Notes: generated from the letters alone by a model not told the origin. Shown: positions 6,439-38,267, counted from the first letter of the stretch. The stretch is DNA of 64,000 nucleotides from Alphaproteobacteria bacterium (GCA_965214705.1 OZ243972.1:1792001-1856000), one strand, 5' to 3'. Translations and numbers: made by a program.

Positions 6439-7626
6439 ATGAGTCGTATGCACTGGATGAGAAAGACGGCCGTCTCGGCGGTGGTTGCCGGCGCCGTGGC
6501 GTTGGGCGCCCACAGCGGCGCGCGCGCCGAGGCCAATCCCGAACTGATGCTCAAGGCGCTCGGCACCACCGAAGGGATCGGCCCGATCGTCACGGCGACC
6601 TTCGAGCGCGCGAGCGCGGCGCTCAGCGAGGAAGACCGCGCGCTGGCGCTGAAGTGCTGGAGCGAGCAGGTGTGCGAGACCGGCCGCGGCGATCTCACCG
6701 TGGCGCTCGCCGACGGCTTCGGCGAGAACGTCTGGCGCCGCGTGACGCACATGGAGTTCGTCATGCAGGCGCTGAGCTATCCCGAGGTCAGCAAGATCAT
6801 CTATACCTCGGCCCGGGGCGACGCCAGCAAGGCGATCTCCGACATGCGGAGCCTGATCGCGCAAGGCGTCGACATCATCGTGACCTTCCCCGATGCGGGC
6901 CCCGCGCTGCTGCCGACCGCCCAGGAGGCAACTGAGTCCGGCATCACCGTAGTCCCCTACATCGCCGGTCTCGGCGGCACGGCGGGCGAGGACTATCTCA
7001 CCTTCGTCGCTGAGGACCTGTGCGAGCTGGGCCGCCAGTTCGTCCAGTTCGTGGCCGGCGCCAACAGCGAGGAGAGCATCGAGATCGTCGAGCTGGGCGG
7101 CACGCCCGGCAACCAGCTGAGCGCCGCTTGGCAGGCCTGCTCCGAGGCCGAGATGGAGAACAACGCGGCAATGACGCTGCTCGGCAAGGCGGACACCAAC
7201 TGGACCCAGCAGGGAACCTTCGAGGCGATGTCGGGCTTCCTTTCGCAGAACCCCGATATCGACGCGGTGCTCTATGAGTATGCCGACGGCTTCCGCGGGG
7301 GCGTGCGCGCCTATGCTGCAGCCGATCGCGCCATGGACGTAATCGTCACGCTGCGCACCGACGAGCAGGGCCTGTTCTGCGATTGGGAAGAAGTGGGAAA
7401 CCCGAACTTCCGCATCTTCTTTTCCTCGGGCGGCACCTTCCAGGTGCGCATCGCGCTGACCGCCGCCATGGAGGCAAGAGGCGGTGCCGAGATCGGCGCC
7501 CATGTCGACGTGCCCTTCAAGATGAAGGAAGTGCAGCAGGGCATGTGCGATAAGGCGTTGCCGGATCAGATGCCGGTTTCCACGCTCGTGGACACCGACA
7601 TGCTGAACGCGATGTTCAAGGAGTAG
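6439..7626 (+). CDS. Periplasmic substrate-binding protein (RbsB-like fold)
   Basis: Signal peptide ending ARA/AEA; ISDMRSLIAQGVDIIV motif; AAGGAG RBS. Confidence 0.9.
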   Translation: MSRMHWMRKTAVSAVVAGAVALGAHSGARAEANPELMLKALGTTEGIGPIVTATFERASAALSEEDRALALKCWSEQVCETGRGDLTVALADGFGENVWRRVTHMEFVMQALSYPEVSKIIYTSARGDASKAISDMRSLIAQGVDIIVTFPDAGPALLPTAQEATESGITVVPYIAGLGGTAGEDYLTFVAEDLCELGRQFVQFVAGANSEESIEIVELGGTPGNQLSAAWQACSEAEMENNAAMTLLGKADTNWTQQGTFEAMSGFLSQNPDIDAVLYEYADGFRGGVRAYAAADRAMDVIVTLRTDEQGLFCDWEEVGNPNFRIFFSSGGTFQVRIALTAAMEARGGAEIGAHVDVPFKMKEVQQGMCDKALPDQMPVSTLVDTDMLNAMFKE

Positions 7627-24458: not shown

Positions 24459-24766
24459 TCATGCGGCTTCCCTCCCCATACGGCCCCTGAGCATCGCGAG
24501 CAGAATGTCGATCACCGGCCTTTCGACGTCGGCGGGCAGCGGCTCCGGGGAAGCGCCGCCGCAAACGGCGGCCGGCGGGGCGGGCAGTTCGGCGAAGGCA
24601 TGCAGCAGGCCGCGACGCCGCGCAGCGCCACCACGGCGAGCCCGTGGCGACCGTGGCCGGCGCCGGGTTCGACGGCATGACGGCGCATCCGCTCGTAACC
24701 GTGCCCGTAGGCGGAATGCTCCGCCGCGGGGAGCGCGGCGCATGGCGGCGGGCTGTGCATCGTCAT
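24459..24766 (-). pseudogene. Small Y4bB-like accessory protein, one-base frameshift near 24605
   Basis: YERMRRHA..GLAVVALRGVAA continues in another frame as LHAFAELP..ILLAM. It overlaps both neighbours by 4 bp. Confidence 0.6.
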
Positions 24767-25221
24767 CGTTTTTTTCCCCGCGCGAGGGCGCGATCGATGC
24801 TGCTGCGATGGATCGAGACGCCGAAGCGTTCGCGCACGAACTCGACCAGCGCGGCGGCGGTCAACTCCGGCTGTTCGCTCTTCGCCGCCTGCAACGCCTC
24901 GACCACCTCGTCGCTGAGCTTGTGCGGCCGGCGCGGACCCGGCCGATCCGGTAGCAGCCCCGGCAGCCCGCCGGCGTTGTAGGCGCGCTGCGCCTGATAC
25001 CAGGTGGGCCGCGAGACGCCGAAGCTGGCGGCGGCGTGGCTCACCGTCACGCCGTCCTCGCGCACCCGGCGCAGCATCTCGTACCTGACCTGGAGCAGGT
25101 CGCGCGGGTCGAAGAACTCGTTCGACAGGAACAGCTCGTCGCGCACCGACTCCGCGCGCGGGTTCAGGCAGCCGTGCTCCTTGAGGGAGCGGGACTTGGC
25201 GTCGGCGGGGCGTTTGGCCAT
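24763..25221 (-). CDS. HTH protein (Y4bC-like)
   Basis: FFDPRDLLQVRYEMLRR..FGVSRPTWY..GLPGLLPDRPGPRRPHKL. Confidence 0.82.
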   Translation of the reverse strand: MAKRPADAKSRSLKEHGCLNPRAESVRDELFLSNEFFDPRDLLQVRYEMLRRVREDGVTVSHAAASFGVSRPTWYQAQRAYNAGGLPGLLPDRPGPRRPHKLSDEVVEALQAAKSEQPELTAAALVEFVRERFGVSIHRSSIDRALARGKKR

Positions 25222-25402: not shown

Positions 25403-25708
25403 TTATATACTCGGCAAAATCTCCTCGGCAGTCTCCGCCCCGCCGTCGCTCTCCCGCATAGTGCGGGCGTCCCTGTCCAGGCTGTCCAGCAATGCCGCCA
25501 GCGCAAGCAGGTCCGAGACGCGGAACGCCGACCGGCCCGCCGCTACCCTCACAAACGGATCCGCCGCCGCGGCGCTCGTAAACGCCTGACGAATCGTCCG
25601 CAGCGTTCCGTCGTCAGCCGTGTAATGAACCAGCCCCACCCCCAGCACCGACGTGGTCTCGATCAGTTCGAACTCACGTCCGTGAAGCGGATGAAACGGG
25701 TGCGTCAC
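25403..25708 (-). CDS. Y4bD/Y4pK (DUF5372)-like protein
   Basis: THPFHPLHGREFE..DPFVRVAAGRSAFRVSDLLAL; true start uncertain. Confidence 0.7.
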   Translation of the reverse strand: MTHPFHPLHGREFELIETTSVLGVGLVHYTADDGTLRTIRQAFTSAAAADPFVRVAAGRSAFRVSDLLALAALLDSLDRDARTMRESDGGAETAEEILPSI

Positions 25709-25749
25709 CCGGACGAGCTGCCGCTCGACGCATCCGAGGGGTGCACTTG

Positions 25750-25950
25750 AGTGCCCAGTCCCAGTGCCCGCGCGATGGCCGCGCCGATGCGATCTGCCGC
25801 CGCCTCGGTCTCCCGGTCACCGACGTGGGCGTAGCGCAGTGTCACACTCGGCCGCTTGTGGCCAAGCAGGCGCGAGACGACCGGGAGCGGGATGCCCTGC
25901 AGCACGGCGTGGCTCGCGAATGAGTGGCATAAATCGTGTATCGATGTGCC
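25750..25950 (-). pseudogene. Tyrosine integrase C-terminal fragment
   Basis: HDLCHSFASH..LLGH..TLRYAH, with the catalytic R replaced by C; N-terminus missing. Confidence 0.8.
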
Positions 25951-26149
25951 GTTTTGCGGCTGCTGGCGCCTGAGGTGCGCTGATGTATGATTAATGCCGC
26001 TAAGACAGTGTGTTATCAAGCCTCATCCTGCCTTCGAGAAGCTTGCATTGGCGACTGAGATGCGCTAACAGTCGACCACTGTTGGGACCGGTTGGTTCCT
26101 GTTTGCTTACGGAATTCGGGCCGGCCAAGAACGCGAGTGCCGAGCGATG

Positions 26150-26293
26150 GAAAGCGTTCGGTCACGCGGTGATGAGAGTGGTGGATTCAACGATTGAGCG
26201 TTCGCTTCCAGTCCTTGCGGAGGGGTCGCAACCAGATGTCCTTTTGGGGCTGGGCCCGTTTCGTGTGCCTGTCATAGCGTCCTCTTCCCTGGG
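26150..26293. repeat. Left 144-bp inverted repeat
   Basis: Reverse complement of 29683-29826, one mismatch seen. Confidence 0.92.
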
Positions 26294-26358
26294 CGCAGAT
26301 TTCATTATCGATCCCCTCAACAAGACACTGGTAACGCCGCCGGCGATTCGATATCGTC

Positions 26359-28911
26359 GTGCGCATGGCGATGCGCGACGAGGAATTCGGAGCGACCCCG
26401 ACGCTGACCGAGGCGGAGGGCGGGTTCTGGGCGCCGCTCCAGGCGGCGCCGGCATCGGAGCCGCGCGACTGGCGGTCTCTGTGCGAACAGGCGCAGTCCC
26501 GCGCGGAGATGGAACGGGCGCGGGCGGACGCGGCGGAAGCGCGCGTCGAAGAGCTGGTTCTGGCGGAGAGGGACGCCCGTTCGCGGGCGGGTTCGCTGAA
26601 GTGGCAGCTCGACAAGAGCCGGGACAAGCTCAAGGCGGCCAACAAGGAGGTCGAGGAGGTTCGCCGCGCGGCCAAGGATGCGCTGTTCTACCAGTCGGAA
26701 GTGGCGCGTTTGGACAAGCTGCTCTCGCAGGCCGGTGTCGAGTCGAGCAAACGCAGCACGATCATGTCGCTGCGCATGGAAGTCTTTCAGCTGCGCGAAG
26801 CCTTGCAGACGTTGCAGGCCGGCAAGGATACGGCCGCCCCTGCATCCGTAGAGAAGATCAAGCTGCCCAGGGGTGCGCCAGCGCTGAAGCCGTCCCAGGA
26901 GCAGAAGGACGAGGTCGCGGCGTTGCGCAGGAAGGTCGAGGCGCTCCGTCGCAGGCTGAAACGGGCGGCAGAGTCGTCGCCGCCCCGGAGAGCGGGCACC
27001 CAGCTGCGCAAGGCGCTGGAACGCGCGCGCAAGCAGAAGGACACGATCAAGGCGCTGCGCGGGCAAGTCGGTTCTCTGCGCCGGGAGACGCGCCGGCTGA
27101 ACCGGGAAGCTCGCCGGCTGCGCCGCGAGCAGGAGCAACTGCAGAGCCTCAAGGCGACCCTGCGCCAGACGACCGCCGAGGCCAAGATTCTCCGCGGGGC
27201 TCTGGCCGGGTTCTACGATCAGATGGACCTCATCAAGGAGCAGCAGAGCCACATCATCGGCCTGCGCGTGGCCCTGAGGACATCGGCCATCAAGAACGAG
27301 AAGCTGGAGGCCGAGCTTGCCGAACGTCCCCTGCTGAGCGCGGTCTTCATGAAACTGCGCGAGCGGAACAAGACCATCGAGGCGCTGCGCAAGGAGATCG
27401 CCCGGCAGCGCAAGGCGAACGGGCGGCTGGGCAGCAAGATAAAGTCCCTGCACGCCCACAGAGCGAGCCTGCAAGCCCGGATTGTCCAGCTTCGCTCGTC
27501 CCGCGCGGTCTTGTCGAAGGCGGTCTTCGGGGGCCGGAGCGAGCGGCAGGAGACGCCCCGCTCGGAGCGCAAGCGCGGCCAGCAGCGCGGCGCGCCCGGC
27601 CACGGCCGTACCTCGCGGCTTGCGCTCAAGGAGAAGGAGGAACGGCGGGAACGGCCGCCGGACGCGCTCATCTGCTCGTGCTGCGGCAAGCCCTATGTCG
27701 CCAACGGCGAGCGTTCCTCGTCCGTCATCGAGATCGCGGTCAAGGCCCACATCCGCAGGATCGTCCGTCCGCGCTACCGTCGGGGCTGCGGCTGCCCGTC
27801 CTCGCCCCCGGAGGCGGTCGCGCCCCCGCCGGCGCGGCTGTTCGCCAGGACGCCCTTCGGGATCAGCGTCTGGGCGCGCATCCTCTACGAGCGCTTCGCC
27901 TGCTTCCGGCCCCTGCGTCAGGTCGCGGCGTGGATGACCGATCAGGGGCTGGCGATCGCGCCGGGGACGATGGCCGACAGCGTGCGCCGCTTCCAGCCGC
28001 TGTTTGCGCCGCTCGCCGAGGCGATCCTCGCCCGCCAGAACGAGATGGCGGTGCGCCACGGCGACGAGACCGGCTGGCGCATCCAGGCGCTGAGCGAGAC
28101 CGGGCGCTCGCGGCGCGCGTGGCTGTGGATCTCGGTCGGCAAGGACGCCGTCTACTACCGCGTCGACCCCTCGCGCAGCGCCGAGGCCGCGATGAAGCTG
28201 TTCGGCTCGGTCAAGGGCACCGTGTTCCTGGTCTGCGACCGCTACGCCGCCTACATCAAGATGGCGCGGGAGCTCGACGGCAAGGTGATCCTGTGCTGGT
28301 GCTGGATCCACCAGAGGCGCGACTTCATCGAGTGCGCGGCTGGCCAGGTGAAGCTGAGGCAGTGGTGCGAGGGGTGGATCGAGCGGTTCGCGTCCGTCGT
28401 CCGGCTGAACAAGGAGCGGCTGAAGCATTACGACCCCGCTCTCGCTCTCATACGACAGACGCCGGCGTTCGACGCGGCACAGGCCGCGCTGAAGAAGGCG
28501 GTCGACGAGCTGTTCGCACAGGGCGAAGCGGAGCTGGCCGACCTGCCGGCCAAGGCGCGCCAGGCCAAGGCGTTGCGCTCGCTGCTCAAGCATCGCGAGG
28601 GACTGAGCGTCTTCGTCGACAATCCCCAGGTGCCCATGGACAACAATGTCGCGGAGCGCGAGTTCCGGAGGGCCGTTATCGGGCGCCGGTTATGCTTCGG
28701 TTCGGACAGCGAGGACGGCGCCGACTTCACGGCGGCGATGTACTCGGTCCTCGGCACCCTCGCCCTGAACGGCATCGATGTCCTGCGCTGGCTGGAGGCG
28801 TGGCTCGAAGCCTGCGCGGAGAACGATGGCCAGCCGCCCGACGACCTGTCGCCCTGGCTGCCCTGGACGATGAGCGAGGAGCGCAGGCGCGAGTTCACGG
28901 CGCCGGAATGA
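26359..28911 (+). CDS. IS66-family DDE transposase with a ~390 aa N-terminal coiled coil
   Basis: FGGRSE, KRGQQRGAPGHGR, CSCCG, GDETGW, CDRYAAY, CWIHQRRDF and DNNVAEREFR. Start may be a few codons later. Confidence 0.92.
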   Translation: MRMAMRDEEFGATPTLTEAEGGFWAPLQAAPASEPRDWRSLCEQAQSRAEMERARADAAEARVEELVLAERDARSRAGSLKWQLDKSRDKLKAANKEVEEVRRAAKDALFYQSEVARLDKLLSQAGVESSKRSTIMSLRMEVFQLREALQTLQAGKDTAAPASVEKIKLPRGAPALKPSQEQKDEVAALRRKVEALRRRLKRAAESSPPRRAGTQLRKALERARKQKDTIKALRGQVGSLRRETRRLNREARRLRREQEQLQSLKATLRQTTAEAKILRGALAGFYDQMDLIKEQQSHIIGLRVALRTSAIKNEKLEAELAERPLLSAVFMKLRERNKTIEALRKEIARQRKANGRLGSKIKSLHAHRASLQARIVQLRSSRAVLSKAVFGGRSERQETPRSERKRGQQRGAPGHGRTSRLALKEKEERRERPPDALICSCCGKPYVANGERSSSVIEIAVKAHIRRIVRPRYRRGCGCPSSPPEAVAPPPARLFARTPFGISVWARILYERFACFRPLRQVAAWMTDQGLAIAPGTMADSVRRFQPLFAPLAEAILARQNEMAVRHGDETGWRIQALSETGRSRRAWLWISVGKDAVYYRVDPSRSAEAAMKLFGSVKGTVFLVCDRYAAYIKMARELDGKVILCWCWIHQRRDFIECAAGQVKLRQWCEGWIERFASVVRLNKERLKHYDPALALIRQTPAFDAAQAALKKAVDELFAQGEAELADLPAKARQAKALRSLLKHREGLSVFVDNPQVPMDNNVAEREFRRAVIGRRLCFGSDSEDGADFTAAMYSVLGTLALNGIDVLRWLEAWLEACAENDGQPPDDLSPWLPWTMSEERRREFTAPE

Positions 28912-29789
28912 CCGGCGCGATCGAGTGCCGCTACTACGGTCGGGACTTCACCGCTGACGAGATGGCGCTGCTGCGCGTCCTGATCGCCGCCGATCCGCAG
29001 CCCACCCGAGCTGCCCTGTCCAGAGAGTTCTGCCGGCGTATCGGTTGGCTCAAGCCTGACGGCGGCCTCAAGGACATGATGGCGAAGGTGACCATGCTCG
29101 CCATGCACCGCGACGGCGTCATCGTCCTGCCGCCGCCGAGAGGGCGCCAGGGGCGGCCCAAGCCCATCGTCTTCGGACCGGACACCGAGCCGCCGCTGTT
29201 CCCCGCTCCGACCACCCTCGACCAGGTGCGTCCCCTCGACTTCCGCACCGTCGTGCGCAACACCCGGGAAGGGAAGCTCTGGAACGAGTTCGTCGCCCGC
29301 TACCACTACCTCGGATACAAGACCCTGGTCGGCGCCCAGATGCGCTACGCCGTGCATGACCGCAACGGCTGGCCGCTGGCCATGCTCGGCTTCTCCACCG
29401 CCGCATGGAAGCTCGCCCCGCGCGACCGCTTCATCGGATGGTCGCCCCAAATGCGCGAGAAAAACCTGCCGCTGGTGGTCGACAATCCGCGCTTCCTGAT
29501 CCTGCCGTGGGTCGAGATCCCCAACCTCGGCTCGCACATCCTCGCCATCGTGCGCCGCCGCCTGCCCGGCGACTGGACCGAGCGCTACAACACCACGCCC
29601 GTGCTCATCGAGACCTTCGTCGAGACCCCGCGCTACACCGGCGCCGTCTACAAGGCCTCGGGCTGGACCCACGTTGGAACCACCCAGGGAAGAGGACGCT
29701 ATGACAGGCATACGAAACGGGCCCAGCCCCAAAAGGACATCTGGTTGCGACCCCTCCGCAAGGACTGGAAGCGAACGCTCAATCGTTGA
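28908..29789 (+). CDS. DUF4338 / DruA-like protein
   Basis: ATGA overlap with the transposase stop; YHYLGY, RDRFIGW, NPRFLILPWV..NLGS, ETFVE and YKASGW..VGTTQGRG. Confidence 0.85.
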   Translation: MTGAIECRYYGRDFTADEMALLRVLIAADPQPTRAALSREFCRRIGWLKPDGGLKDMMAKVTMLAMHRDGVIVLPPPRGRQGRPKPIVFGPDTEPPLFPAPTTLDQVRPLDFRTVVRNTREGKLWNEFVARYHYLGYKTLVGAQMRYAVHDRNGWPLAMLGFSTAAWKLAPRDRFIGWSPQMREKNLPLVVDNPRFLILPWVEIPNLGSHILAIVRRRLPGDWTERYNTTPVLIETFVETPRYTGAVYKASGWTHVGTTQGRGRYDRHTKRAQPQKDIWLRPLRKDWKRTLNR

Positions 29790-29826
29790 ATCCACCACTC
29801 TCATCACCGCGTGACCGAACGCTTTC
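29683..29826. repeat. Right 144-bp inverted repeat, includes the last ~35 codons of the DUF4338 gene
   Basis: Reverse complement of 26150-26293. Confidence 0.92.
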
Positions 29827-29829
29827 GCG

Positions 29830-31026
29830 ATGCCGAAACGGAACGCCATCCGGATTTCCAAGCGGTCGGTCGAACGCCTGGCGGTGGAGCGCGGCGACGC
29901 GCTGTTCTGGGACCGCGACCTCACGGGCTTCGGGGTCAGGGTCTATGCGACCGGGCGCAAGGTCTACGTGGCCCAGACGCGCGGGCCGACAGGCCAGTCC
30001 AGGCGGGTGCCCATCGGCGTGCATGGCGAGATCGCGCCGGACGAGGCGCGCGGCAAGGCGGCGGTCGTCATCGACCGCATCGGGCGGGGCGAGGATCCGT
30101 TCCCGCCGGAGCCCGCCCCGCCGCCGACGATGGCCGACCTGGCCGAGCGCTACGTCAAGGGCCACCTCGAAGTGAACTGCCGGCCGAACACGGTGAAGAC
30201 GTGCCGGCGGGTGCTGGATCTCCACATCCTGCCCGCGCTGGGGCATCTGCCGGTGGCGTCTGTCGAGCGCTCGCATGTGTCCGAGCTCCATTTCAGGATG
30301 CGGGACAAGCCCGCCCAGGCGAACCAGGCGGTGGAGGTGCTGTCGAAGATGTTCCGGTTGGCCGAGACCTGGGGCATGACGCCGCCCCGGCGCAGTCCCT
30401 GCCGGCGGGTGCGGGCCTACAAGAGGGTCCGGCGGGAGCGGTTCCTGACGCCGGAGGAGTATCGCCGTCTCGGACGCGTGCTGGACGAGGCGGAGGCGGC
30501 GGGCGGGTTCCTGCCGTCCGGCATCGCCGCGATCCGGCTGCTGCTGCTGACCGGTTGCCGCAAGAACGAGATCGTCACCCTCAGGTGGGACGACATCGAC
30601 CGCACGGCGGGCGAGATCCGGATTCGCGACGCGAAGACCGGCGCGCGGCGCATCCCGCTGACGCGGGCGGTGGAATCCGTGCTGGCCGGCATTCCGCGCA
30701 TCGAAGGCAATCCCTGGGTGATTACGGGGAAGCTGCCGGGCGATCACTTGAAGAACCTCGACCAGGTCTGGCTCAGGCTGCGCCCGCGCGCCGGGCTCGA
30801 CGGCGTGCGCATTCACGACTGCCGACACTCTTACGCGTCCCGCGCGCTGGCGATCGGCGAGGGCCTGCCGATGATCGGCAAGCTGCTCGGTCACCGCAAG
30901 GTGACGACGACGGCGCGCTACGCCCACCTGGTGCGGGACACGGAGAAGGCCTCGGCGCGCAAGGTCGGCCGCAGCATCGGGGCGGACATTCTGGGCGGGG
31001 ACGCGGAGGAAGGCCGCGCGGCCTGA
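29830..31026 (+). CDS. Tyrosine integrase with arm-binding (DUF4102-like) domain, paralogue 1
   Basis: WDRDLTGFGVRV; R-K-H-R-H-Y set GCRKNE, AKTG, HDCRH, LGH, RYAH. Confidence 0.93.
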   Translation: MPKRNAIRISKRSVERLAVERGDALFWDRDLTGFGVRVYATGRKVYVAQTRGPTGQSRRVPIGVHGEIAPDEARGKAAVVIDRIGRGEDPFPPEPAPPPTMADLAERYVKGHLEVNCRPNTVKTCRRVLDLHILPALGHLPVASVERSHVSELHFRMRDKPAQANQAVEVLSKMFRLAETWGMTPPRRSPCRRVRAYKRVRRERFLTPEEYRRLGRVLDEAEAAGGFLPSGIAAIRLLLLTGCRKNEIVTLRWDDIDRTAGEIRIRDAKTGARRIPLTRAVESVLAGIPRIEGNPWVITGKLPGDHLKNLDQVWLRLRPRAGLDGVRIHDCRHSYASRALAIGEGLPMIGKLLGHRKVTTTARYAHLVRDTEKASARKVGRSIGADILGGDAEEGRAA

Positions 31027-32185: not shown

Positions 32186-34281
32186 CCCATCTTTGCCATT
32201 TTGGCGCGCGCCTGCGACCTAAGTAGTTGCGATGATGGGCTGATTTTCTGGCCCATCTGGGATTATGGCACTACGTTTGTGCGCTCATCGCGACACTCCC
32301 GGGAGCACCGCCCGGCGCCTGTGGGGATCCACCGTGAGGCCCGCCGCCTGCGCGATGACGCGCGCCTCGGCGTCGGGTTGAGCATCCTGGCGGATGACGA
32401 TGCGGTTTCCGTCCACCTCCCGGATGGTGGAGGTGAGACGCACCCAGCCCGCGAGCTTGTCGCGGATCGTACTCCAGCGGTCATGCAAGCCGTGCGCCGC
32501 CAGACGGGTTCGCAGCAGATGAACCGCGTGGTAGGCGAGGACGGCGATGAACAGGTGGGCGGCGATGCGCGAGGTCTTGGAGTGCCAGACCGGGCGCAGG
32601 CCGATTTCGGATTTCAGGCTGCGGAAGGTGGCCTCGAGCTCTGTGAGCTTCCAGTAGGTTCGGACCACGGTTTCAAGATCCCACTCGACGTGGCTGGTGC
32701 GCAGCACATAGATGCCCGCTTGGCGGTCGCGCTCGGCATGGAGAGCGTTGCGCCTCCAGCGGACCGCACTGGCCCGCCCCTTCTCTCCGGGCTCGACCTC
32801 GATGTCGTACTGACGGTGGACGCGCCTGTACCTTTCCTTCAGCCGGCCCAGCTTCTCCATCACCTTGGTGAACTGCTTGATGTGGTTCTTCTTCGACAGC
32901 CCGCCATGCAGGGCGCGCAGGGCGTCCTCGAAGTTGTGACGCTGACGGGCGAGCACGGCCTCGTCCTTCTGCTGGCGCTCATGGCTCCAGACGCACAGGT
33001 GCGCTTCGTCGTCCCCTGCCGCGAGACGCCAGGCGCGGGCATCGTGGCCGGCCCGGGTTTCGAAGGCGGCATCGGCTTCGCGCCCGGGCGGCGCCGAGAC
33101 GCCGCGGCGAACGGTGATCCAGTGATAGCCGCCCGCCCGCAGCCAGGCGAGGTTGGCCTCGGTGGAGATGCCGGCGTCCATGATGACCGTGGGCCTGGGG
33201 GCGTTGCTGCCGCGCGCTTGGCATTCCAGCCGCCCGATGGCGTCGGCGAGAGTGGCCGGCTCGGAGATGTTGCCGGGCAGGATCTCGCTGTGCTGCGGAA
33301 AGCCGGCCTGGTTCAGCGACAGGGCCAGGGTCACGATCGGACAATCGTCACGCCTCTGCTTCGAGCGCCCGAAGCGGGCCAGCGCGGAGCTGGGCCGTCC
33401 GGTCATATGGGTGTTGGTCAGGTCGAAGAAGACGATGGTGTCGGGGATGCCGAAGAGATCGCGCTCCCGGGCGCACAGCGCCTCTTCAAGCGCCGCGCGG
33501 TGACGCCACAAGAGGTCGCCGATGCGGTAGAGCTTGCTGAGCGTGAGCGACTTGCCGCTGTCGACATCGAGCAACTCCAGGGTCGCGCTGTTCGCGCTCA
33601 GCCAGCGGAAGGCCTCGCGCTCGCTGGAGGGATGGATCATGCGCGCGACCACCAGTGCCGCCGCGATGCGTGCGTCGCGCTCACTTGCGCCCAGCCTCTC
33701 CAGCGTCTCGATGAAGCGAAGGTCGTCAAGCGCGGCGAGAGCCAGGCGCTCGCAGCCCACCGAGCGGACCTGTTCGTGGGAGAGGCTATCGAGACGGACC
33801 GTGGCCAGGTCGCTCTCGTCCCCGGGCCGCGACGCGCCGAGATCGCGGGCGTGAAGCCGCCGTACGACGTCCTCGGCGACGGGGCGCAAGGCGGCATCCG
33901 GCTCCAGCAGCGGCTCGCTGCCGGCGAGAAGGGTTTCGATCAGAAGCGCCAATTCGCGCCATTGCTCCTCGGGCACACCGAAGTCGGCGCCGAGATTGAG
34001 GAGCGTGACCTGGCGCACCCTTCCGCCGATGCGTTCGCTGCGCACGAGGCGGTAGGTGGCATAGCGCTCGCCACCGTCTCCGCGACCGGTGAGGGTTTTG
34101 CGAATGAACATGGCGGCAGGGTCACGGACAGTTTGCGGACTGTCAAGGAGCGCCGGCCCACAGACCAAAGATTATGGCACTACAATGGACTTCCCAAAAC
34201 ACAATCCAACAAAATCAGTGCCTTAGATCCCAAAGGCTACCCAAAATCAGGCCTTCGGGACCGAAAAGTGGCAAAGATGGG
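32186..34281 (-). mobile_element. IS1634-family insertion sequence (copy 2, divergent from copy 1)
   Basis: TIR CCCATCTTTGCCA / TGGCAAAGATGGG; TGAA duplicated on both sides. Confidence 0.9.
32285..34111 (-). CDS. IS1634-family DDE transposase
   Basis: FFDLTN, FGRSKQRRDD, IMDAG and LEATFRSLKSEIGLRPVWH motifs. Confidence 0.92.
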   Translation of the reverse strand: MFIRKTLTGRGDGGERYATYRLVRSERIGGRVRQVTLLNLGADFGVPEEQWRELALLIETLLAGSEPLLEPDAALRPVAEDVVRRLHARDLGASRPGDESDLATVRLDSLSHEQVRSVGCERLALAALDDLRFIETLERLGASERDARIAAALVVARMIHPSSEREAFRWLSANSATLELLDVDSGKSLTLSKLYRIGDLLWRHRAALEEALCARERDLFGIPDTIVFFDLTNTHMTGRPSSALARFGRSKQRRDDCPIVTLALSLNQAGFPQHSEILPGNISEPATLADAIGRLECQARGSNAPRPTVIMDAGISTEANLAWLRAGGYHWITVRRGVSAPPGREADAAFETRAGHDARAWRLAAGDDEAHLCVWSHERQQKDEAVLARQRHNFEDALRALHGGLSKKNHIKQFTKVMEKLGRLKERYRRVHRQYDIEVEPGEKGRASAVRWRRNALHAERDRQAGIYVLRTSHVEWDLETVVRTYWKLTELEATFRSLKSEIGLRPVWHSKTSRIAAHLFIAVLAYHAVHLLRTRLAAHGLHDRWSTIRDKLAGWVRLTSTIREVDGNRIVIRQDAQPDAEARVIAQAAGLTVDPHRRRAVLPGVSR

Positions 34282-34649
34282 TGAAGGAGTCGGCGGACCG
34301 GGTGGCCGACAGCATTGCCGGCGATCTTCTTGCGGAGTACGCGGGCTCAAGAGGCCGCGGATCCGTTTCCCCGATGACCCCTCGGAGCGGAACCGGATCG
34401 ACATGAAGGCGGCGCATGCGCCGCCGACAGACTTCTCAATGCGACGGACCGACTGGCGGACTCCACAGCCAAAATGATTGTGCTCTCGGCTCAAGCCTAT
34501 GATTTGGACCTTTCAGGATGGCGGATCACGATTGTTACTCTCAACGATTATGTGGTCACGCTCGAATTCTAAGGGACCGCCGCCCTGACGGCCGCTCTCC
34601 GATCCCTCAGGGTCCATCTCGCCGCGCCGAGCAATTAAGGAGCGTTGCA

Positions 34650-35735: not shown

Positions 35736-35963
35736 AGCGTACGCAGAATATCTGCCGGGGAGTCGAGCGATTTCGCTCGCATTATTTGATGTGTGGGGGC
35801 GGGTGCCCCCGGCGATCTTGCAAGAAGGCCTCCGGGGGGCTTGTCTCGGTGACGTGGCAATCATCCGGGACGCCCTGGGGGCGGTCGGCCGGCAATGGGG
35901 GATCCCGGTGCCGACGCGGATCCCCATGCCGCGGGGCCGGCTTCGCGGGACCCGCCTCCCGCC

Positions 35964-38267
35964 TCACCCGTCATCCGGCCCGAGCATGCGGTATCCGAGG
36001 CCGCGCTCGCTGAGGATGTATCTGGGGTTCCTGGCGTCGTCGCCGAGCTTGGCGCGGAGCTTGCGGATGGCGTTGCGCATGGTCTCCGGGTTGGCGCCGC
36101 CCCGGTCGCCCCACACCCGGCGCCGCAGCGTGTCGTAGGTGGTCGCCCCGCCGGCGTCGAGCGAGAGCGTGTGCAGGATCCTGTACTCGATGGCGGTGAG
36201 CCGCACCGGTTTGCCGGCGACGGTGACGCGTCGCGTCGCGCGGTCGATGGCGAGGTCGCCGAGCACGAAGGGCCCGGGCGCGGCACGGCGGTTGAGCGCG
36301 ACGCCCACCCGGGCCACCAGCTCGGCCGGCGAGAAGGGCTTGACGATGTAGTCGGCCGCACCCGCCTCCAGGGCCCGCGCGATGGTCTCGCCCCTTCCGT
36401 AGGCCGAGACGAAGATCACCGGCAGGTCGGCGAGTGCCGGCAGGGTGCGCATCAGCTCGATGCCGTCGGCGCCGGGCAGCACCAGGTCGAGCACCGCGAG
36501 CGCGGGCCGCCGGGTCTCGACCAGGCGGGCCAGCTCGCCCGACCCGGCGGCGGTGACCGGGTCGTAGCCCGCCGCCGCCAGTGCGTCGCGCATCCCGCGC
36601 AGCGCGTGCGGGTCGTCGTCCACCACCAGGATGGCGGTCCCGCCCGGCCCGTCCGGGGAGACGGACGCGGGGACGGCAGCGGCGGGAGCGTCCTCCACGG
36701 CCGGCAGGGTGAAGGTGATCGTGGTGCCGCGGCCCGGCCCGGCGCTCTCGGCCCGGATGCGCCCGCCATGGGCCTCCACCAGGCCCCGGCAGATGACCAG
36801 CCCGAGACCCGACCCGCCGCCCACGCCCCCGTCCATGTCGGCGTGGCGGCGGAACAGGTGAGGAATCCGCTCCGGCGCAATCCCCTCGCCGTCGTCGGCG
36901 ACCGAGACCGCCACGTGCGCGCCCTCGCGCTCCGCCGCCACCCGGATGGGAGAGGCTTCCGGCGAGTGCCGCGCGGCATTGGTCAGGAGATTGTCCAGCA
37001 CCTGCACGATGCGGCGCGGGTCCGCCATCACCCGGGGCAGGTCCGGCGGAAGGTCGACGACCACGGAATGCTTGCCGCCGGCGCCCGCGAACGCGGTCCG
37101 CGCCCGCTCGACCAGCCCGGCCAGATCCTGCGCCTCCGGATCGACCGGCATCACCCCGGCGCCGATGCGCCCGGCATCCAGCAGGTCGCCGATCAGCCCG
37201 TTCATGCGGTCGGCCTGCGCATCCACGATGCGCAGGAACTGGCGCAACTCCGCACGGTCGGGCTCGCGCGCGCCCTCCAGCGCCGCCGCGGCCGAGCCCT
37301 TGATCGCCGCCAGCGGCGTGCGCAGCTCGTGGCTCACCGTGGAGAGGAAGTCGGCCCGGGACCGCGCCAGCGCCTCGAACGGCTCGAGGTCCTGCAGGAT
37401 CACCACCAGCCGTTCCACCGCGCCGTCCTCGGCACGGATCGGGGTGGCGTCGAGGAGTGTCCGCACGCTGGCCCCGCCGGGCACCGAGAGCTCGACCTCC
37501 TCGGCGCGCACCGTCTCGCCGCGGCCGAGATCGTCGAGCGTGACCGCGCGCCCGTCGCCCCGCCGGCAGGTCATCGCGCCGGCCAGCCGCTCGACCGGGA
37601 GCTCGGGCGAGACCAGCCCCGCCACGATGCGCCTTGCCTCCCGGTTGAGCGAGGCGAGCGCGCCGGTGGCGGCGTCGAGCACCACCACGCCGACCGGGCA
37701 GGTCTCGACCAGCGCCTCGAGGTCGGCGCGGGCGCGCCGCTCCTCGCGATGGGCGCGCGCGTTGGCGACCGCGGCGGCGGCCTGGGCGGAGAGCAGCACC
37801 AGCACCTCCTCGTCCGCCTCGGTGAACCCGCCCTTCTTGGTGCCGAGGAAGAAACTGCCGACATGAGCGCCCCGGTGGCGCATCGGCGTGCCCTGGAACG
37901 CCCCGCAGTCGATCGGGCACGGCGAGGGGATCAGCGCGTTCACGAACTCCGCCAGGTCGGCCAGGCGGATCGGCGCGGCGAGGCCAGCGAGATGGGCAAA
38001 GAGGCCGTGCCCGTCGGGCCAGCCCTCCAGCGCCTGGTGCTCGTCCTCCGTCAGGCCGGAGGTGACGAAGTCGCCGGGGCGCCCCAACTCATCGACGGTG
38101 GCGATGGCGCCGCAGCCCGCGCCGGTGAGCGCGCGGGCGGCGTCGACCACCTCGCGCAGCACCGTGTCGAGATCGAGGCTCGCGCCGATGCGCAGCACCG
38201 CCGCGCTGAGCGCGCTCGGATGTGCGCCGTCATCCCCTTCCCGTGCCGTTTCGTCGCGTTCGGTCAA
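35964..38267 (-). CDS. Cytoplasmic hybrid protein GAF-PAS-HisKA-HATPase-REC-winged HTH
   Basis: SHELRTPL, NLLTNA, DDGEGI, GSGLGL, LVVDDD, LDLVLP, YIVKPF, and an OmpR-type tail LTAIEY..LRAKLGDDARNPRYI..RGLGY. Confidence 0.92.
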   Translation of the reverse strand: MTERDETAREGDDGAHPSALSAAVLRIGASLDLDTVLREVVDAARALTGAGCGAIATVDELGRPGDFVTSGLTEDEHQALEGWPDGHGLFAHLAGLAAPIRLADLAEFVNALIPSPCPIDCGAFQGTPMRHRGAHVGSFFLGTKKGGFTEADEEVLVLLSAQAAAAVANARAHREERRARADLEALVETCPVGVVVLDAATGALASLNREARRIVAGLVSPELPVERLAGAMTCRRGDGRAVTLDDLGRGETVRAEEVELSVPGGASVRTLLDATPIRAEDGAVERLVVILQDLEPFEALARSRADFLSTVSHELRTPLAAIKGSAAAALEGAREPDRAELRQFLRIVDAQADRMNGLIGDLLDAGRIGAGVMPVDPEAQDLAGLVERARTAFAGAGGKHSVVVDLPPDLPRVMADPRRIVQVLDNLLTNAARHSPEASPIRVAAEREGAHVAVSVADDGEGIAPERIPHLFRRHADMDGGVGGGSGLGLVICRGLVEAHGGRIRAESAGPGRGTTITFTLPAVEDAPAAAVPASVSPDGPGGTAILVVDDDPHALRGMRDALAAAGYDPVTAAGSGELARLVETRRPALAVLDLVLPGADGIELMRTLPALADLPVIFVSAYGRGETIARALEAGAADYIVKPFSPAELVARVGVALNRRAAPGPFVLGDLAIDRATRRVTVAGKPVRLTAIEYRILHTLSLDAGGATTYDTLRRRVWGDRGGANPETMRNAIRKLRAKLGDDARNPRYILSERGLGYRMLGPDDG

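Follow-up and report, generated by a model that had tools for sequence, protein, structure and literature searches.

Classical insertion sequences of the IS66 family carry tnpA and tnpB upstream of tnpC, are bounded by terminal inverted repeats beginning with GTAA(GCG), generate an 8-bp target duplication and have a short leucine zipper. The ISBst12 group of the same family consists of single-gene elements of less than 2 kb without tnpA and tnpB, in which the transposase alone bears the family signature. The locus described here lies in a window of 64,000 nucleotides from an Alphaproteobacteria bacterium (GCA_965214705.1 OZ243972.1:1792001-1856000), in which an IS66-type element occupies positions 26150-29826 (3677 bp). 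We consider it, with a probability of about 0.75 for the explanation as a whole, to be an intact and predicted autonomous insertion sequence of the IS66 family that belongs to a widespread two-gene clade lacking tnpA and tnpB.

The element is delimited by inverted repeat arms of 144 nt at 26150-26293 (left, plus strand) and 29683-29826 (right, minus strand), which both open with GAAAGCGTTCGG and are 99% complementary, with 143 of 144 positions matched and one mismatch in the global alignment. A 6-bp direct repeat, GCGATG, surrounds the element at 26144-26149 and 29827-29832, and the ATG of the right copy is the start codon of an integrase gene. The right arm comprises the final 107 nt of the DUF4338 gene, including its stop codon, and a 37-nt tail; consequently, the left arm repeats the DUF4338 3' end in inverted orientation, its first ~25 nt corresponding to the ancestral terminal repeat (GAAAGCGTTCGGTCACGCGGTGATG). 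Both termini read GAAAGCG, one change (T-to-A at position 2) from GTAAGCG, and lie in register with the GTAAGCC, GTAATGG or GTAAGCG termini of sister elements. Only 209 nt separate the left end from the transposase start, and a Pfam search of the six other ORFs inside the element found no match to tnpA or tnpB; five had no match of any kind and the sixth had a DUF4042 match below threshold (E 0.002, 18.3 bits vs a cut-off of 27). The original prediction had described two ATGA-coupled genes, no tnpA or tnpB, 144-nt repeats with one mismatch and GAAAGCG ends, a 6-bp target duplication and a left repeat that inverts the DUF4338 3' end, all of which were confirmed. Assignment to the classical IS66 group was ruled out by the absence of tnpA and tnpB and the 209 nt preceding the transposase gene.

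The transposase gene (26359-28911, plus strand) encodes an 850-residue TnpC-like DDE protein. Its residues 499-789 match PF03050 (DDE_Tnp_IS66) with E 9.8e-53, and residues 411-818 score 268.6 bits with NF033517 (IS66 family transposase), for which the cut-off is 180. Residues 411-818 (27589-28812, plus strand) contain the DDE catalytic core and a CSCC motif that resembles a zinc finger, and C439, C441, C442, C477 and C479 are invariant in the alignment of relatives. Residues 38-389 (26470-27525, plus strand) form a helical, coiled-coil-like N-terminal extension, the most variable part of the element (29-73% identity among relatives), for which five long helices were predicted at low confidence (mean pLDDT 49). 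Because of this low confidence, the term coiled coil reflects the predicted helices and weak matches to coiled-coil families; of the giant coiled coil proposed originally, the helical N-terminal extension is retained as a predicted feature, while the coiled coil itself is putative.

The second gene (28908-29789, plus strand) encodes a 293-residue protein of the DUF4338/DruA family (PF14236, E 3.1e-39), and its start overlaps the transposase stop in an ATGA at 28908-28911. Of 8000 candidates scored, 1471 proteins fall into the clade at E ≤ 0.001. Relatives are encoded in 206 stretches of species-representative genomes, and 77 loci were examined, which are non-independent in that many are copies within a few genomes. 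The element's own genome holds five relatives, and its elements are spread over three contigs. The DUF4338 gene begins 0-9 nt past the transposase gene in 74 of the 77 loci elsewhere and in all six own-genome elements, in agreement with the proposal of a distinct IS66 subgroup; this second conserved and coupled gene ruled out the single-gene ISBst12 group. Conservation is 83-94% for DUF4338 and 65-93% for the transposase core, DUF4338 ranking above both transposase parts in 18 of 18 comparisons. DruA also lies C-terminal to an IS66 transposase within single polypeptides (P0183, P0197), and is fused to Tn5-like transposases (P0225, P0249, P0219) and, in the element's own genome, to an ISAs1-like transposase. 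DUF4338 thus recurs with three DDE transposase families, as a partner or as a fused domain, which argues for a partner integral to these elements and against a Druantia system. A Druantia type I system was rejected as a candidate for this locus: DruB-E are absent from an element of two genes, integrase genes make up its flanks and the PADLOC DruA model scores 18.9 bits.

Other features vary within the clade. An 8-bp target duplication was found in 26 of the 38 relatives with refined ends and in three own-genome sisters, and the 6-bp duplication is peculiar to the present copy. Its subclade has GAAAGCG ends and the others retain GTAA. The present element is a single copy in its genome, where sister elements with 8-bp duplications form one set of two identical copies and another of three copies at ≥99%; a further genome has eight listed copies (L013-L018, L020, L037) with GAAAGCG ends and individual 8-bp duplications. 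The ends measure 144-228 nt in all six own-genome elements, 132-287 nt in 20 of the 77 other loci and 24-42 nt in 27 of them. The 6-bp duplication, the long repeats and the GAAAGCG terminus, which the original prediction had taken as features of the subgroup, therefore do not characterize the clade as a whole.

At least four lineages have lost the terminal 16-31 nt on the left, where the right-hand 132-221 nt now stand in inverted copy and make the left end a non-coding mirror image of the 3' end of the DUF4338 gene. As each long-ended lineage has short-ended sisters, the long ends are, on sequence comparison, derived and patchy across the clade. These sisters show the long arm in place of the old terminus and bear out the earlier suggestion of a left end remade from the right one. 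The present copy and L022 have a common inner junction, and their arm differences comprise seven found identically in both arms, none confined to the right arm and one confined to the left. If the junction has a single origin in the present copy, L022 and L013, the arms probably co-evolved after the left-end replacement and were kept alike by gene conversion. The clade may illustrate a general route by which transposon ends grow, with the left terminus replaced by the right and the arms then homogenized.

The target is the first of two tandem tyrosine-recombinase genes (29830-31026, plus strand), which the insertion severs from its upstream region. An uninterrupted paralogous site in the same genome (C1:3418661-3421396), which reads ...gccgaatgATGCCGAAACGG, aligns at 92.8% across the reconstructed empty junction. 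This clean insertion, together with the multi-copy sister elements, speaks for mobility. In the own genome, an integrase ATG is no more than 4 nt away from three of the six copies (P 3.5e-9), and the 38 refined loci include 14 distinct sites at -166 to +16 of an integrase ATG. The start codon of tandem tyrosine-recombinase genes appears to be a preferred kind of site for the clade, which points to targeted entry of one mobile element into another. The original prediction did not include this hot spot, the way in which the long arms arose repeatedly and independently and then co-evolved, or the Mom-like active site described below.

The long ends could instead be adaptive, serving dsRNA or antisense control of the transposase-DUF4338 message, providing extra protein sites or forming an inversion substrate, with selection keeping the arms identical. 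Their acquisition in at least four separate lineages, the 96-100% identity within elements that differ by ~25% from one another, and the multiplication of long-ended forms (three copies of c2c and nine L013-type loci with 141-150-nt ends) would fit such a role. We give it some chance while doubting it: 27 of the 77 loci thrive with 24-42-nt ends, including a family of ~15 loci in one genome (L024-L036, L050, L088), the inner borders are sharp and unequal (132, 144, 154, 201 and 220 nt), the left arm of L013 is decaying with five left-right differences, and neither a promoter-like site nor a known RNA family was found within the element. That the present copy is a dead relic, whose T-to-A change at position 2 of the ends and 6-bp duplication mark lost mobility, seems quite improbable. 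It is indeed the only copy in its genome, and its duplication is unlike that of 26 of the 38 relatives; however, both reading frames are intact, the ends agree at 143 of 144 positions, and GAAAGCG-ended relatives (L013-L020, L019, L048) are present in many identical copies that all have individual 8-bp duplications. The catalytic-core residues that are invariant among relatives are also all present in this copy, because it forms the first row of the alignment. The original prediction had itself raised the concerns that the left repeat could be an assembly artefact or that homologues could have short repeats without DUF4338 linkage, the first of which is countered by the uninterrupted paralogous site and the long ends of all six own-genome elements; the DUF4338 linkage holds in 74 of 77 loci. 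Short-read contigs do break within the repeat, at 26179-26196, as expected for any inverted repeat, and the search for support of an artefact at the left repeat found none. An artefact is extremely unlikely given that long ends recur on three contigs of this genome and in 20 of 77 loci of other assemblies, many of which reach chromosome scale. The left arm's inner border is also spanned by contigs from runs X1 and X3, at 26196-26415 and 26196-28064, a non-independent support in that these runs may be the source sample.

The confident model of DUF4338 (pLDDT 92.2) suggests a small N-terminal helical domain joined to a Mom-like GNAT domain (residues 106-293; 29223-29786, plus strand). Foldseek returned 131 PDB matches at E ≤ 0.001, with a GNAT domain in every match listed, and a structure comparison with 48,161 chains gave 206 at Z ≥ 8, those listed all being GNATs. 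Phage Mu Mom (8bv8_B) ranked top of the 48,161 chains (Z 14.8, with 164 residues aligned at rmsd 3.2; the rest ≤12.4) and would be, for the DUF4338 GNAT domain, the closest relative with a solved structure. To our knowledge, Mom is the sole GNAT that modifies DNA bases. The DUF4338 profile matched the Mom family alignment with E 0.0015 over 150 columns, yet with an hhalign probability of only 16%, and hmmscan gave no match of DUF4338 to the Mom family (PF25680) even at E ≤ 10, returning only DruA and one chance hit. In the alignment of 16% probability, five of the six compared Mom residues (H58, Y59, S124, R151 and Y159) align with the identical H133, Y134, S209, R242 and Y248, which are conserved in 31-36 of 37 DUF4338 sequences and in 18-19 of 19 IS66-linked sequences; the sixth, the essential Mom R111, sits opposite a gap of two residues and has no DUF4338 counterpart. 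The acyl-CoA pyrophosphate-binding loop of GNATs carries the motif Q/R-x-x-G-x-G/A. This loop reads E-I-P-N-L-G-S in the present copy and R-x-P-N-L-A-S in the consensus, with the middle Gly changed to Asn and the motif partly kept. According to PMC13219725, Mom moves glycine from Gly-tRNA(Gly) onto adenine N6 in double-stranded DNA, an activity for which R111, S124 and R151 are essential and H58, Y59 and Y159 strongly needed. A full-text literature search, with ISfinder/TnPedia and supplements outside its scope, found four papers that mention DUF4338, two that mention it with a transposase, three that mention DruA with DruB, and no work that treats Druantia, Mom and GNAT together.

The two proteins probably work jointly. 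The transposase would bind the terminal ~25 nt and then cut, insertion would proceed through a staggered 8-bp cut (6 bp in the present event), and DUF4338 would act at the DNA alongside the transposase, as an acyl-/aminoacyl-transferase or a regulator, and not as a part of Druantia defence. Alternatively, DUF4338 could be passenger cargo with no part in transposition, either Mom-like and DNA-modifying (anti-restriction or self-marking) or defence-related, with the benefit going to the host or to the replicon that bears the element. The likeness to Mom fits this reading too, since Mom has an anti-restriction function that shields phage Mu DNA (PMC13219725, PMC7261163) and mom is also the final gene before the right end of Mu; in addition, DUF4338 is known from Druantia type I, as its Pfam name indicates, and has been described in a fusion to DndF (PMC10853773). 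A passenger nevertheless seems unlikely, since in 74 of 77 loci the gene keeps its place and is translationally coupled, and since the two-gene element has no further defence genes. Because of this tight coupling, the top conservation of DUF4338 in 18 of 18 comparisons, its occurrence in one polypeptide with three different transposase families, the weak PADLOC match and the lack of room for DruB-E, a putative transposition-accessory role is favoured over Druantia cargo. The original prediction had left the choice between an accessory and mobile defence cargo undecided; its first option is the one favoured and Druantia cargo is disfavoured.

A more speculative extension, which we consider improbable, is that DUF4338 is a Mom-like nucleobase acyl-/aminoacyl-transferase and constitutes a self-carried DNA-marking device of at least three DDE families (IS66, Tn5-like and ISAs1-like). 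Its N-terminal domain or the transposase would direct it to the element ends or to the target, where the mark would be placed. Dam methylation couples transposition to replication in IS10 and IS50. Marking by DUF4338 could likewise couple transposition to replication, or confer target immunity, and the same chemistry could account for the self-marking or sensing step that is still missing from the picture of DruA in Druantia type I. Accessory proteins are a poorly understood side of bacterial transposition, and here DUF4338, a protein family so far known mainly as the DruA of Druantia, is the constant partner of a large IS66 clade; DUF4338/DruA would gain a definite chemistry that is open to test in an element of just two genes. 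The natural series of sisters with 25-nt or 130-220-nt ends likewise opens the origin and homogenization of long terminal repeats to test.

Compared with the known systems, the present element resembles classical IS66 in its TnpC-type DDE transposase, in the GTAAGCG-type ends of its sisters and in the 8-bp duplication of 26 of 38 relatives, but a helical extension of ~350 residues replaces the short leucine zipper, a DUF4338 gene lies downstream, part of the clade has ends of 132-221 nt and the present copy has a 6-bp duplication. The clade lacks tnpA and tnpB as does the ISBst12 group, whereas its elements have two genes, measure about 3.4-3.7 kb and encode a far longer transposase (731-850 residues in the own genome). 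The second protein belongs to the same Pfam family as DruA of Druantia type I, and differs in being coupled to a transposase inside a two-gene transposon. The Tn5/IS4-like and ISAs1-like fusions also join a DUF4338 domain to a DDE transposase and are multi-copy in the own genome; DUF4338 is N-terminal there, and is a separate downstream gene in the present element. As in the case of Mom (PF25680; PDB 8bv8), the gene is the last one ahead of the right end of a transposable element; unlike Mom, DUF4338 has about 100 additional residues that form an N-terminal domain, and its partner is an IS66 transposase rather than MuA; a Com-like activator was not seen.

The element put forward in the original prediction, two genes coupled through an ATGA overlap between 144-nt inverted ends with a 6-bp target duplication, is present in the window as W (26150–29826). 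Its ends (26150–26293 and 29683–29826; 144 nt, 99% complementary) were the sole outstanding inverted pair in a repeat search, and global alignment of the two arms, both of which start with GAAAGCGTTCGG and have GCGATG outside them, gave a single mismatch and a sharp drop in similarity beyond position 144. The first gene (26359–28911, plus strand) encodes an 850-aa protein that matches PF03050 (E 9.8e-53) and, across residues 411–818, the IS66 family transposase model NF033517 (268.6 bits against a cut-off of 180). The second gene (28908–29789, plus strand), which overlaps the first in the ATGA, encodes a 293-aa protein of the DruA/DUF4338 family (PF14236, E 3.1e-39). Because the right arm comprises the final 107 nt of the DUF4338 gene and a 37-nt tail, the left arm consists of mirrored coding sequence. 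Residues 38–389 of the transposase form five long predicted helices in a low-confidence model of the whole protein (mean pLDDT 49), from which secondary structure alone was taken. A co-fold of transposase residues 400–850 with DUF4338 scored 0.00, a value with no bearing either way on binding.

There is no space within W for either tnpA or tnpB. None of six further internal ORFs reached a Pfam threshold (0/6), one of them having a sub-threshold match to DUF4042, and a minus-strand ORF at 26187–26675 whose terminal part is the mirrored DUF4338 tail was rejected as a gene, having no Pfam match. Comparison of W with Rfam returned two matches, both far under their gathering scores, and a promoter scan of the element found none. 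A terminator-like hairpin at 26277–26296 is a consensus match only.

The genome of the window (7.9 Mb, three contigs) holds five more full elements on contigs C2 and C3, and the gene pair of transposase and DUF4338 is found in all six. The six elements fall into three subfamilies that are ~73–75% identical to one another: W alone, c2a with c2b (100% identical), and c3a with c2c and c2d (99–99.9%). All have long inverted ends (144, 201, 201, 221, 220 and 228 nt, 98.2–100% identity), those of c2d measuring ~221 nt once a palindromic flank is trimmed off. The sisters of W are multi-copy and carry target duplications, which are a perfect 8 bp in three of them, 7/8 in c2a and lacking in c3a. Two of these copies have peculiarities of their own. 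In c2d (G000:C2:448256–451678), one extra nucleotide in the right arm, close to the end of the DUF4338 gene, lets the DUF4338 frame continue to the element end, and the helical region of its transposase has indels relative to the sisters, with 89–94% identity in those alignment windows. In c3a (G000:C3:79840–83291), which has no target duplication, the sequence on the right matches, in inverse orientation, the left flank of c2c on another contig, and GTAAGCG, an end motif from a different IS66-type element, occurs in the left flank; this arrangement suggests recombination between copies on different replicons.

Relatives are widespread beyond this genome. A search with the transposase core, in which 8000 candidates were scored, recovered 1471 proteins at E ≤ 0.001; the best 120 of these are 469–902 aa long, 71–100% identical to the core and, where named at all, called just 'IS66 family transposase'. 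Among species-representative genomes, 206 stretches encode a relative, and 77 such loci were examined, from metagenome-assembled genomes labelled Alpha- and Gammaproteobacteria, Rariloculaceae, Binatia, Acidobacteria, Bryobacterales and others. The predicted linkage to DUF4338 proved constant: the DUF4338 gene begins 0–9 nt past the transposase gene in 74 of the 77 loci, which are not independent, many being copies within a few genomes. The three exceptions (L039, L061 and L076) are truncated transposase matches, and in two loci (L045 and L047) the DUF4338 match is truncated. Relative to W, DUF4338 ranked first in conservation in all 18 comparisons (83–94%), with the transposase core (65–93%) second and the helical part (29–73%) last. 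W thus belongs to the IS66 family and carries a DUF4338 gene that is constant, coupled to the transposase gene and highly conserved.

Other traits that had been proposed for the subgroup fared less well. Among the 38 loci with refined ends, the target duplication is a perfect 8 bp in 26, 7 bp in one and absent in 11; the 6-bp duplication is therefore peculiar to the W insertion. Ends beginning GAAAGCG are common in the W subclade (L013–L022, L031, L033, L034, L038, L048 and L051), but other subclades have GTAA, including the sisters of W in its own genome, which start GTAAGCC or GTAATGG. In eight of the 38 refined loci (L017, L025, L028, L036, L065, L066, L074 and L088), the end of a related element lies no more than 24 nt outside the element's own end, often abutting the target duplication, and L029 and L068 are head-to-tail tandem copies with abutted ends.

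The insertion history of W could be read from a paralogous locus. At C1:3419041, an integrase gene 93% identical to the one flanking W has an uninterrupted upstream region, gccgaatgATGCCGAAACGG. When W and one GCGATG were removed, the window aligned to this locus with 92.8% identity over 2750 nt, straight through the junction, indicating that W entered a tandem pair of tyrosine-recombinase genes at the start codon of the first; that gene now starts with the ATG in the duplicated GCGATG. The segment common to the window and the paralogue begins near 25766. To the left of W lie minus-strand genes for an HTH_32/HTH_23 protein (24763–25221) and a DUF5372 protein (25403–25708), together with the C-terminal part of a further tyrosine recombinase (25705–26019, minus strand). 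On the right, the window has ~2.1 kb of extra DNA relative to the paralogous two-integrase unit (32186–34280), directly after the second integrase gene, with long ORFs on both strands (32201–34477, plus; 32285–34168, minus).

The available sequencing runs, among which the source sample may be represented, consist solely of contigs, and none of these spans the whole of W. In three runs of one study (X1–X3), contigs join 26143 to 29830 without W. This joint differs at three letters, which fits an empty site of a paralogue or relative better than excision of W, and the latter reading was not accepted. An RNA library (X12) yielded contigs that match parts of the transposase core and of DUF4338 at 2–22 differences; they were assigned to relatives and rejected as transcription of W.

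Insertion at integrase starts is a recurrent pattern. W, c2a and c2b lie 3–4 nt past the A of the ATG in paralogous integrase genes (MPKR...), at window 29827–29835, G000:C2:475156 and G000:C2:540689, and an empty paralogous site exists for each. At least three of six own-genome insertions at integrase starts corresponds to P 3.5e-9 (89 integrase-like starts, 50-nt windows). In other genomes, the 38 refined loci include 14 distinct sites at −166 to +16 of the ATG of a tandem tyrosine recombinase (L022, L037, L050, L025, L027 and others), and L022 has the same ATGCCGAAACGG context as the own-genome integrase-start insertions. The integrase at these sites always points away from the element, and the distant sites (−125 to −166) mostly have, by inspection, an older end or a miniature element in between. 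The remaining own-genome copies, c2c, c2d and c3a, lie in another repeated region, likewise with uninterrupted paralogues. The preference might come from a protein bound at these sites or from a structure. By eye, the MPKR codons contain a pseudo-end (GAAACGG, following the ATG), which offers a weak idea of how the hot spot might arise.

Long ends had been proposed as a trait of the subgroup, but they do not define it. By self-comparison of each locus, inverted ends measure 132–287 nt in 20 of the 77 loci and 24–42 nt in 27; the remaining 30 gave no clean pair, owing to truncation, contig ends, tandem arrangement or repeats below the length that the settings could pick up. The 287-nt value is inflated, since the full copy in L031 sits between two ~125-nt miniature derivatives (2628–2761 and 6475–6608 of the locus), each combining a left and a right end, in inverted orientation. 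A comparable miniature end precedes the integrase in L017. Every long-ended lineage can be paired with a short-ended sister that shares its terminal sequence (W with L051, L038 and L033; c2a with L070; c2c with L062), and the L046/L052 group forms a fourth long-ended lineage.

Alignment of the left ends bore out the suggestion that the left end was rebuilt from the right: the long arm, derived from the right end, stands in place of the old terminal 16–31 nt, after which the sequence is back in register. Behind their new 154-nt arm, L019 and L031 retain the inner portion of the former left repeat (GCAGTGATGG...), and the alignment reads as a two-base overlap at the junction. The inner borders of the long arms differ (132, 141–146, 154, 201 and 220 nt), which points to at least four independent replacement events. 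One inner junction is common to W, L022 and L013. Between W and L022, seven sites are altered identically in both arms, none in the right arm only and one in the left arm only; five of the seven paired changes affect the third base of a codon, one affects a first base and one the non-coding tail. Such identical paired changes are as predicted by gene conversion between the arms, an argument that assumes a single origin of the junction in W, L022 and L013. The left arm of L013 is drifting, with five left–right differences. Replacement might proceed by template switching while both ends are held together, or by deletion within head-to-head neighbours. The latter route is plausible given how often related ends lie within 24 nt (8/38 loci) and given the tandem copies.

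The DUF4338 family is large: a library clustered at 50% identity contains 8473 representatives (E ≤ 0.001), and these include single-polypeptide fusions of an IS66 transposase with DruA (P0183 and P0197) and of DruA with a Tn5-like transposase (P0225, P0249 and P0219). The genome of the window alone gave 62 tblastn matches to the W protein, many of them in multi-copy elements in which DUF4338 is N-terminal to a Tn5-like (771 aa) or ISAs1-like (597 aa) transposase; G000:C1:3855668–3857983 and G000:C3:473547–475340 are such elements. The 62 matches also include a ~1.1-kb repeat of about 21 copies. A search of a plasmid collection gave two records, neither with an IS66 neighbour. The element does not qualify as a Druantia defence system, the PADLOC DruA model scoring 18.9 bits and DruB–E being absent.

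A confident model of DUF4338 built with 37 sequences (pLDDT 92.2) predicts an N-terminal domain of two short strands and three helices (residues 5–68), a linker, and an α/β domain from about residue 106. Foldseek returned 131 PDB matches at E ≤ 0.001, the matches listed all being GNAT-domain proteins, in agreement with the assignment of DUF4338 as a GNAT domain in excerpts of PMC10853773; in PMC6174562 it appears in a table only. Against the sequences of solved structures, the DUF4338 profile gave no match at E ≤ 1 and two chance matches at E ≤ 10. The best of 48,161 representative chains was Mom of phage Mu (8bv8_B; Z 14.8, rmsd 3.2), aligned over 164 residues within model positions 107–292, with the next 49 chains at Z 10.8–12.4. 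Profile–profile alignment with 24 Mom-family proteins gave E 0.0015 over 150 columns with a probability of only 16%, superseding an hhalign comparison with the single Mu Mom sequence (E 0.028, probability 1.8%). In a language-model search of the ESM Atlas with DruA clusters left out, the nearest entries carry Mom at 0.79–0.80, under the 0.9 mark and so a lead only; hmmscan of DUF4338 found no Mom family even at E ≤ 10.

The profile–profile alignment places DUF4338 His133, Tyr134, Ser209, Arg242 and Tyr248 opposite Mom His48, Tyr49, Ser114, Arg141 and Tyr149, which we infer, from an offset of 10 in six matching residues, to be the published His58, Tyr59, Ser124, Arg151 and Tyr159. These residues are kept in 36, 31, 36, 33 and 33 of the 37 sequences and in 19, 18, 19, 19 and 19 of the 19 IS66-linked proteins, respectively. 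Mom transfers glycine from Gly-tRNA(Gly) to the N6 of adenine in double-stranded DNA; Ser124, Arg111 and Arg151 are essential, and H58A, Y59A and Y159A have drastically reduced activity (excerpts of PMC13219725). Arg111 falls in a two-residue gap of the alignment. The predicted structure and the aligned residues suggest that DUF4338 may have a Mom-like active site.

What DUF4338 does for the element can be read in two ways. The coupling of its gene to the transposase gene, its conservation and its fusions to three transposase families argue that it acts with the transposase at DNA. The main rival is that it is cargo with a Mom-like protective function, and the likeness to Mom would also suit such a role; in the Mu genome, mom is the final gene ahead of the right end (35907–36602 of 36717). 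We favour action with the transposase at DNA. In searches of a full-text library of papers, we found none on an IS66 element with DUF4338 or on a link between Mom and DruA; PMC5678879 concerns IS1272, a different family from IS66.

Classical IS66 elements carry tnpA, tnpB and tnpC between short GTAA ends and produce an 8-bp duplication, and those of the ISBst12 group of IS66 are single-gene elements (ISfinder; Gourbeyre et al. 2010). Compared with both, the two-gene clade of W represents a third architecture.
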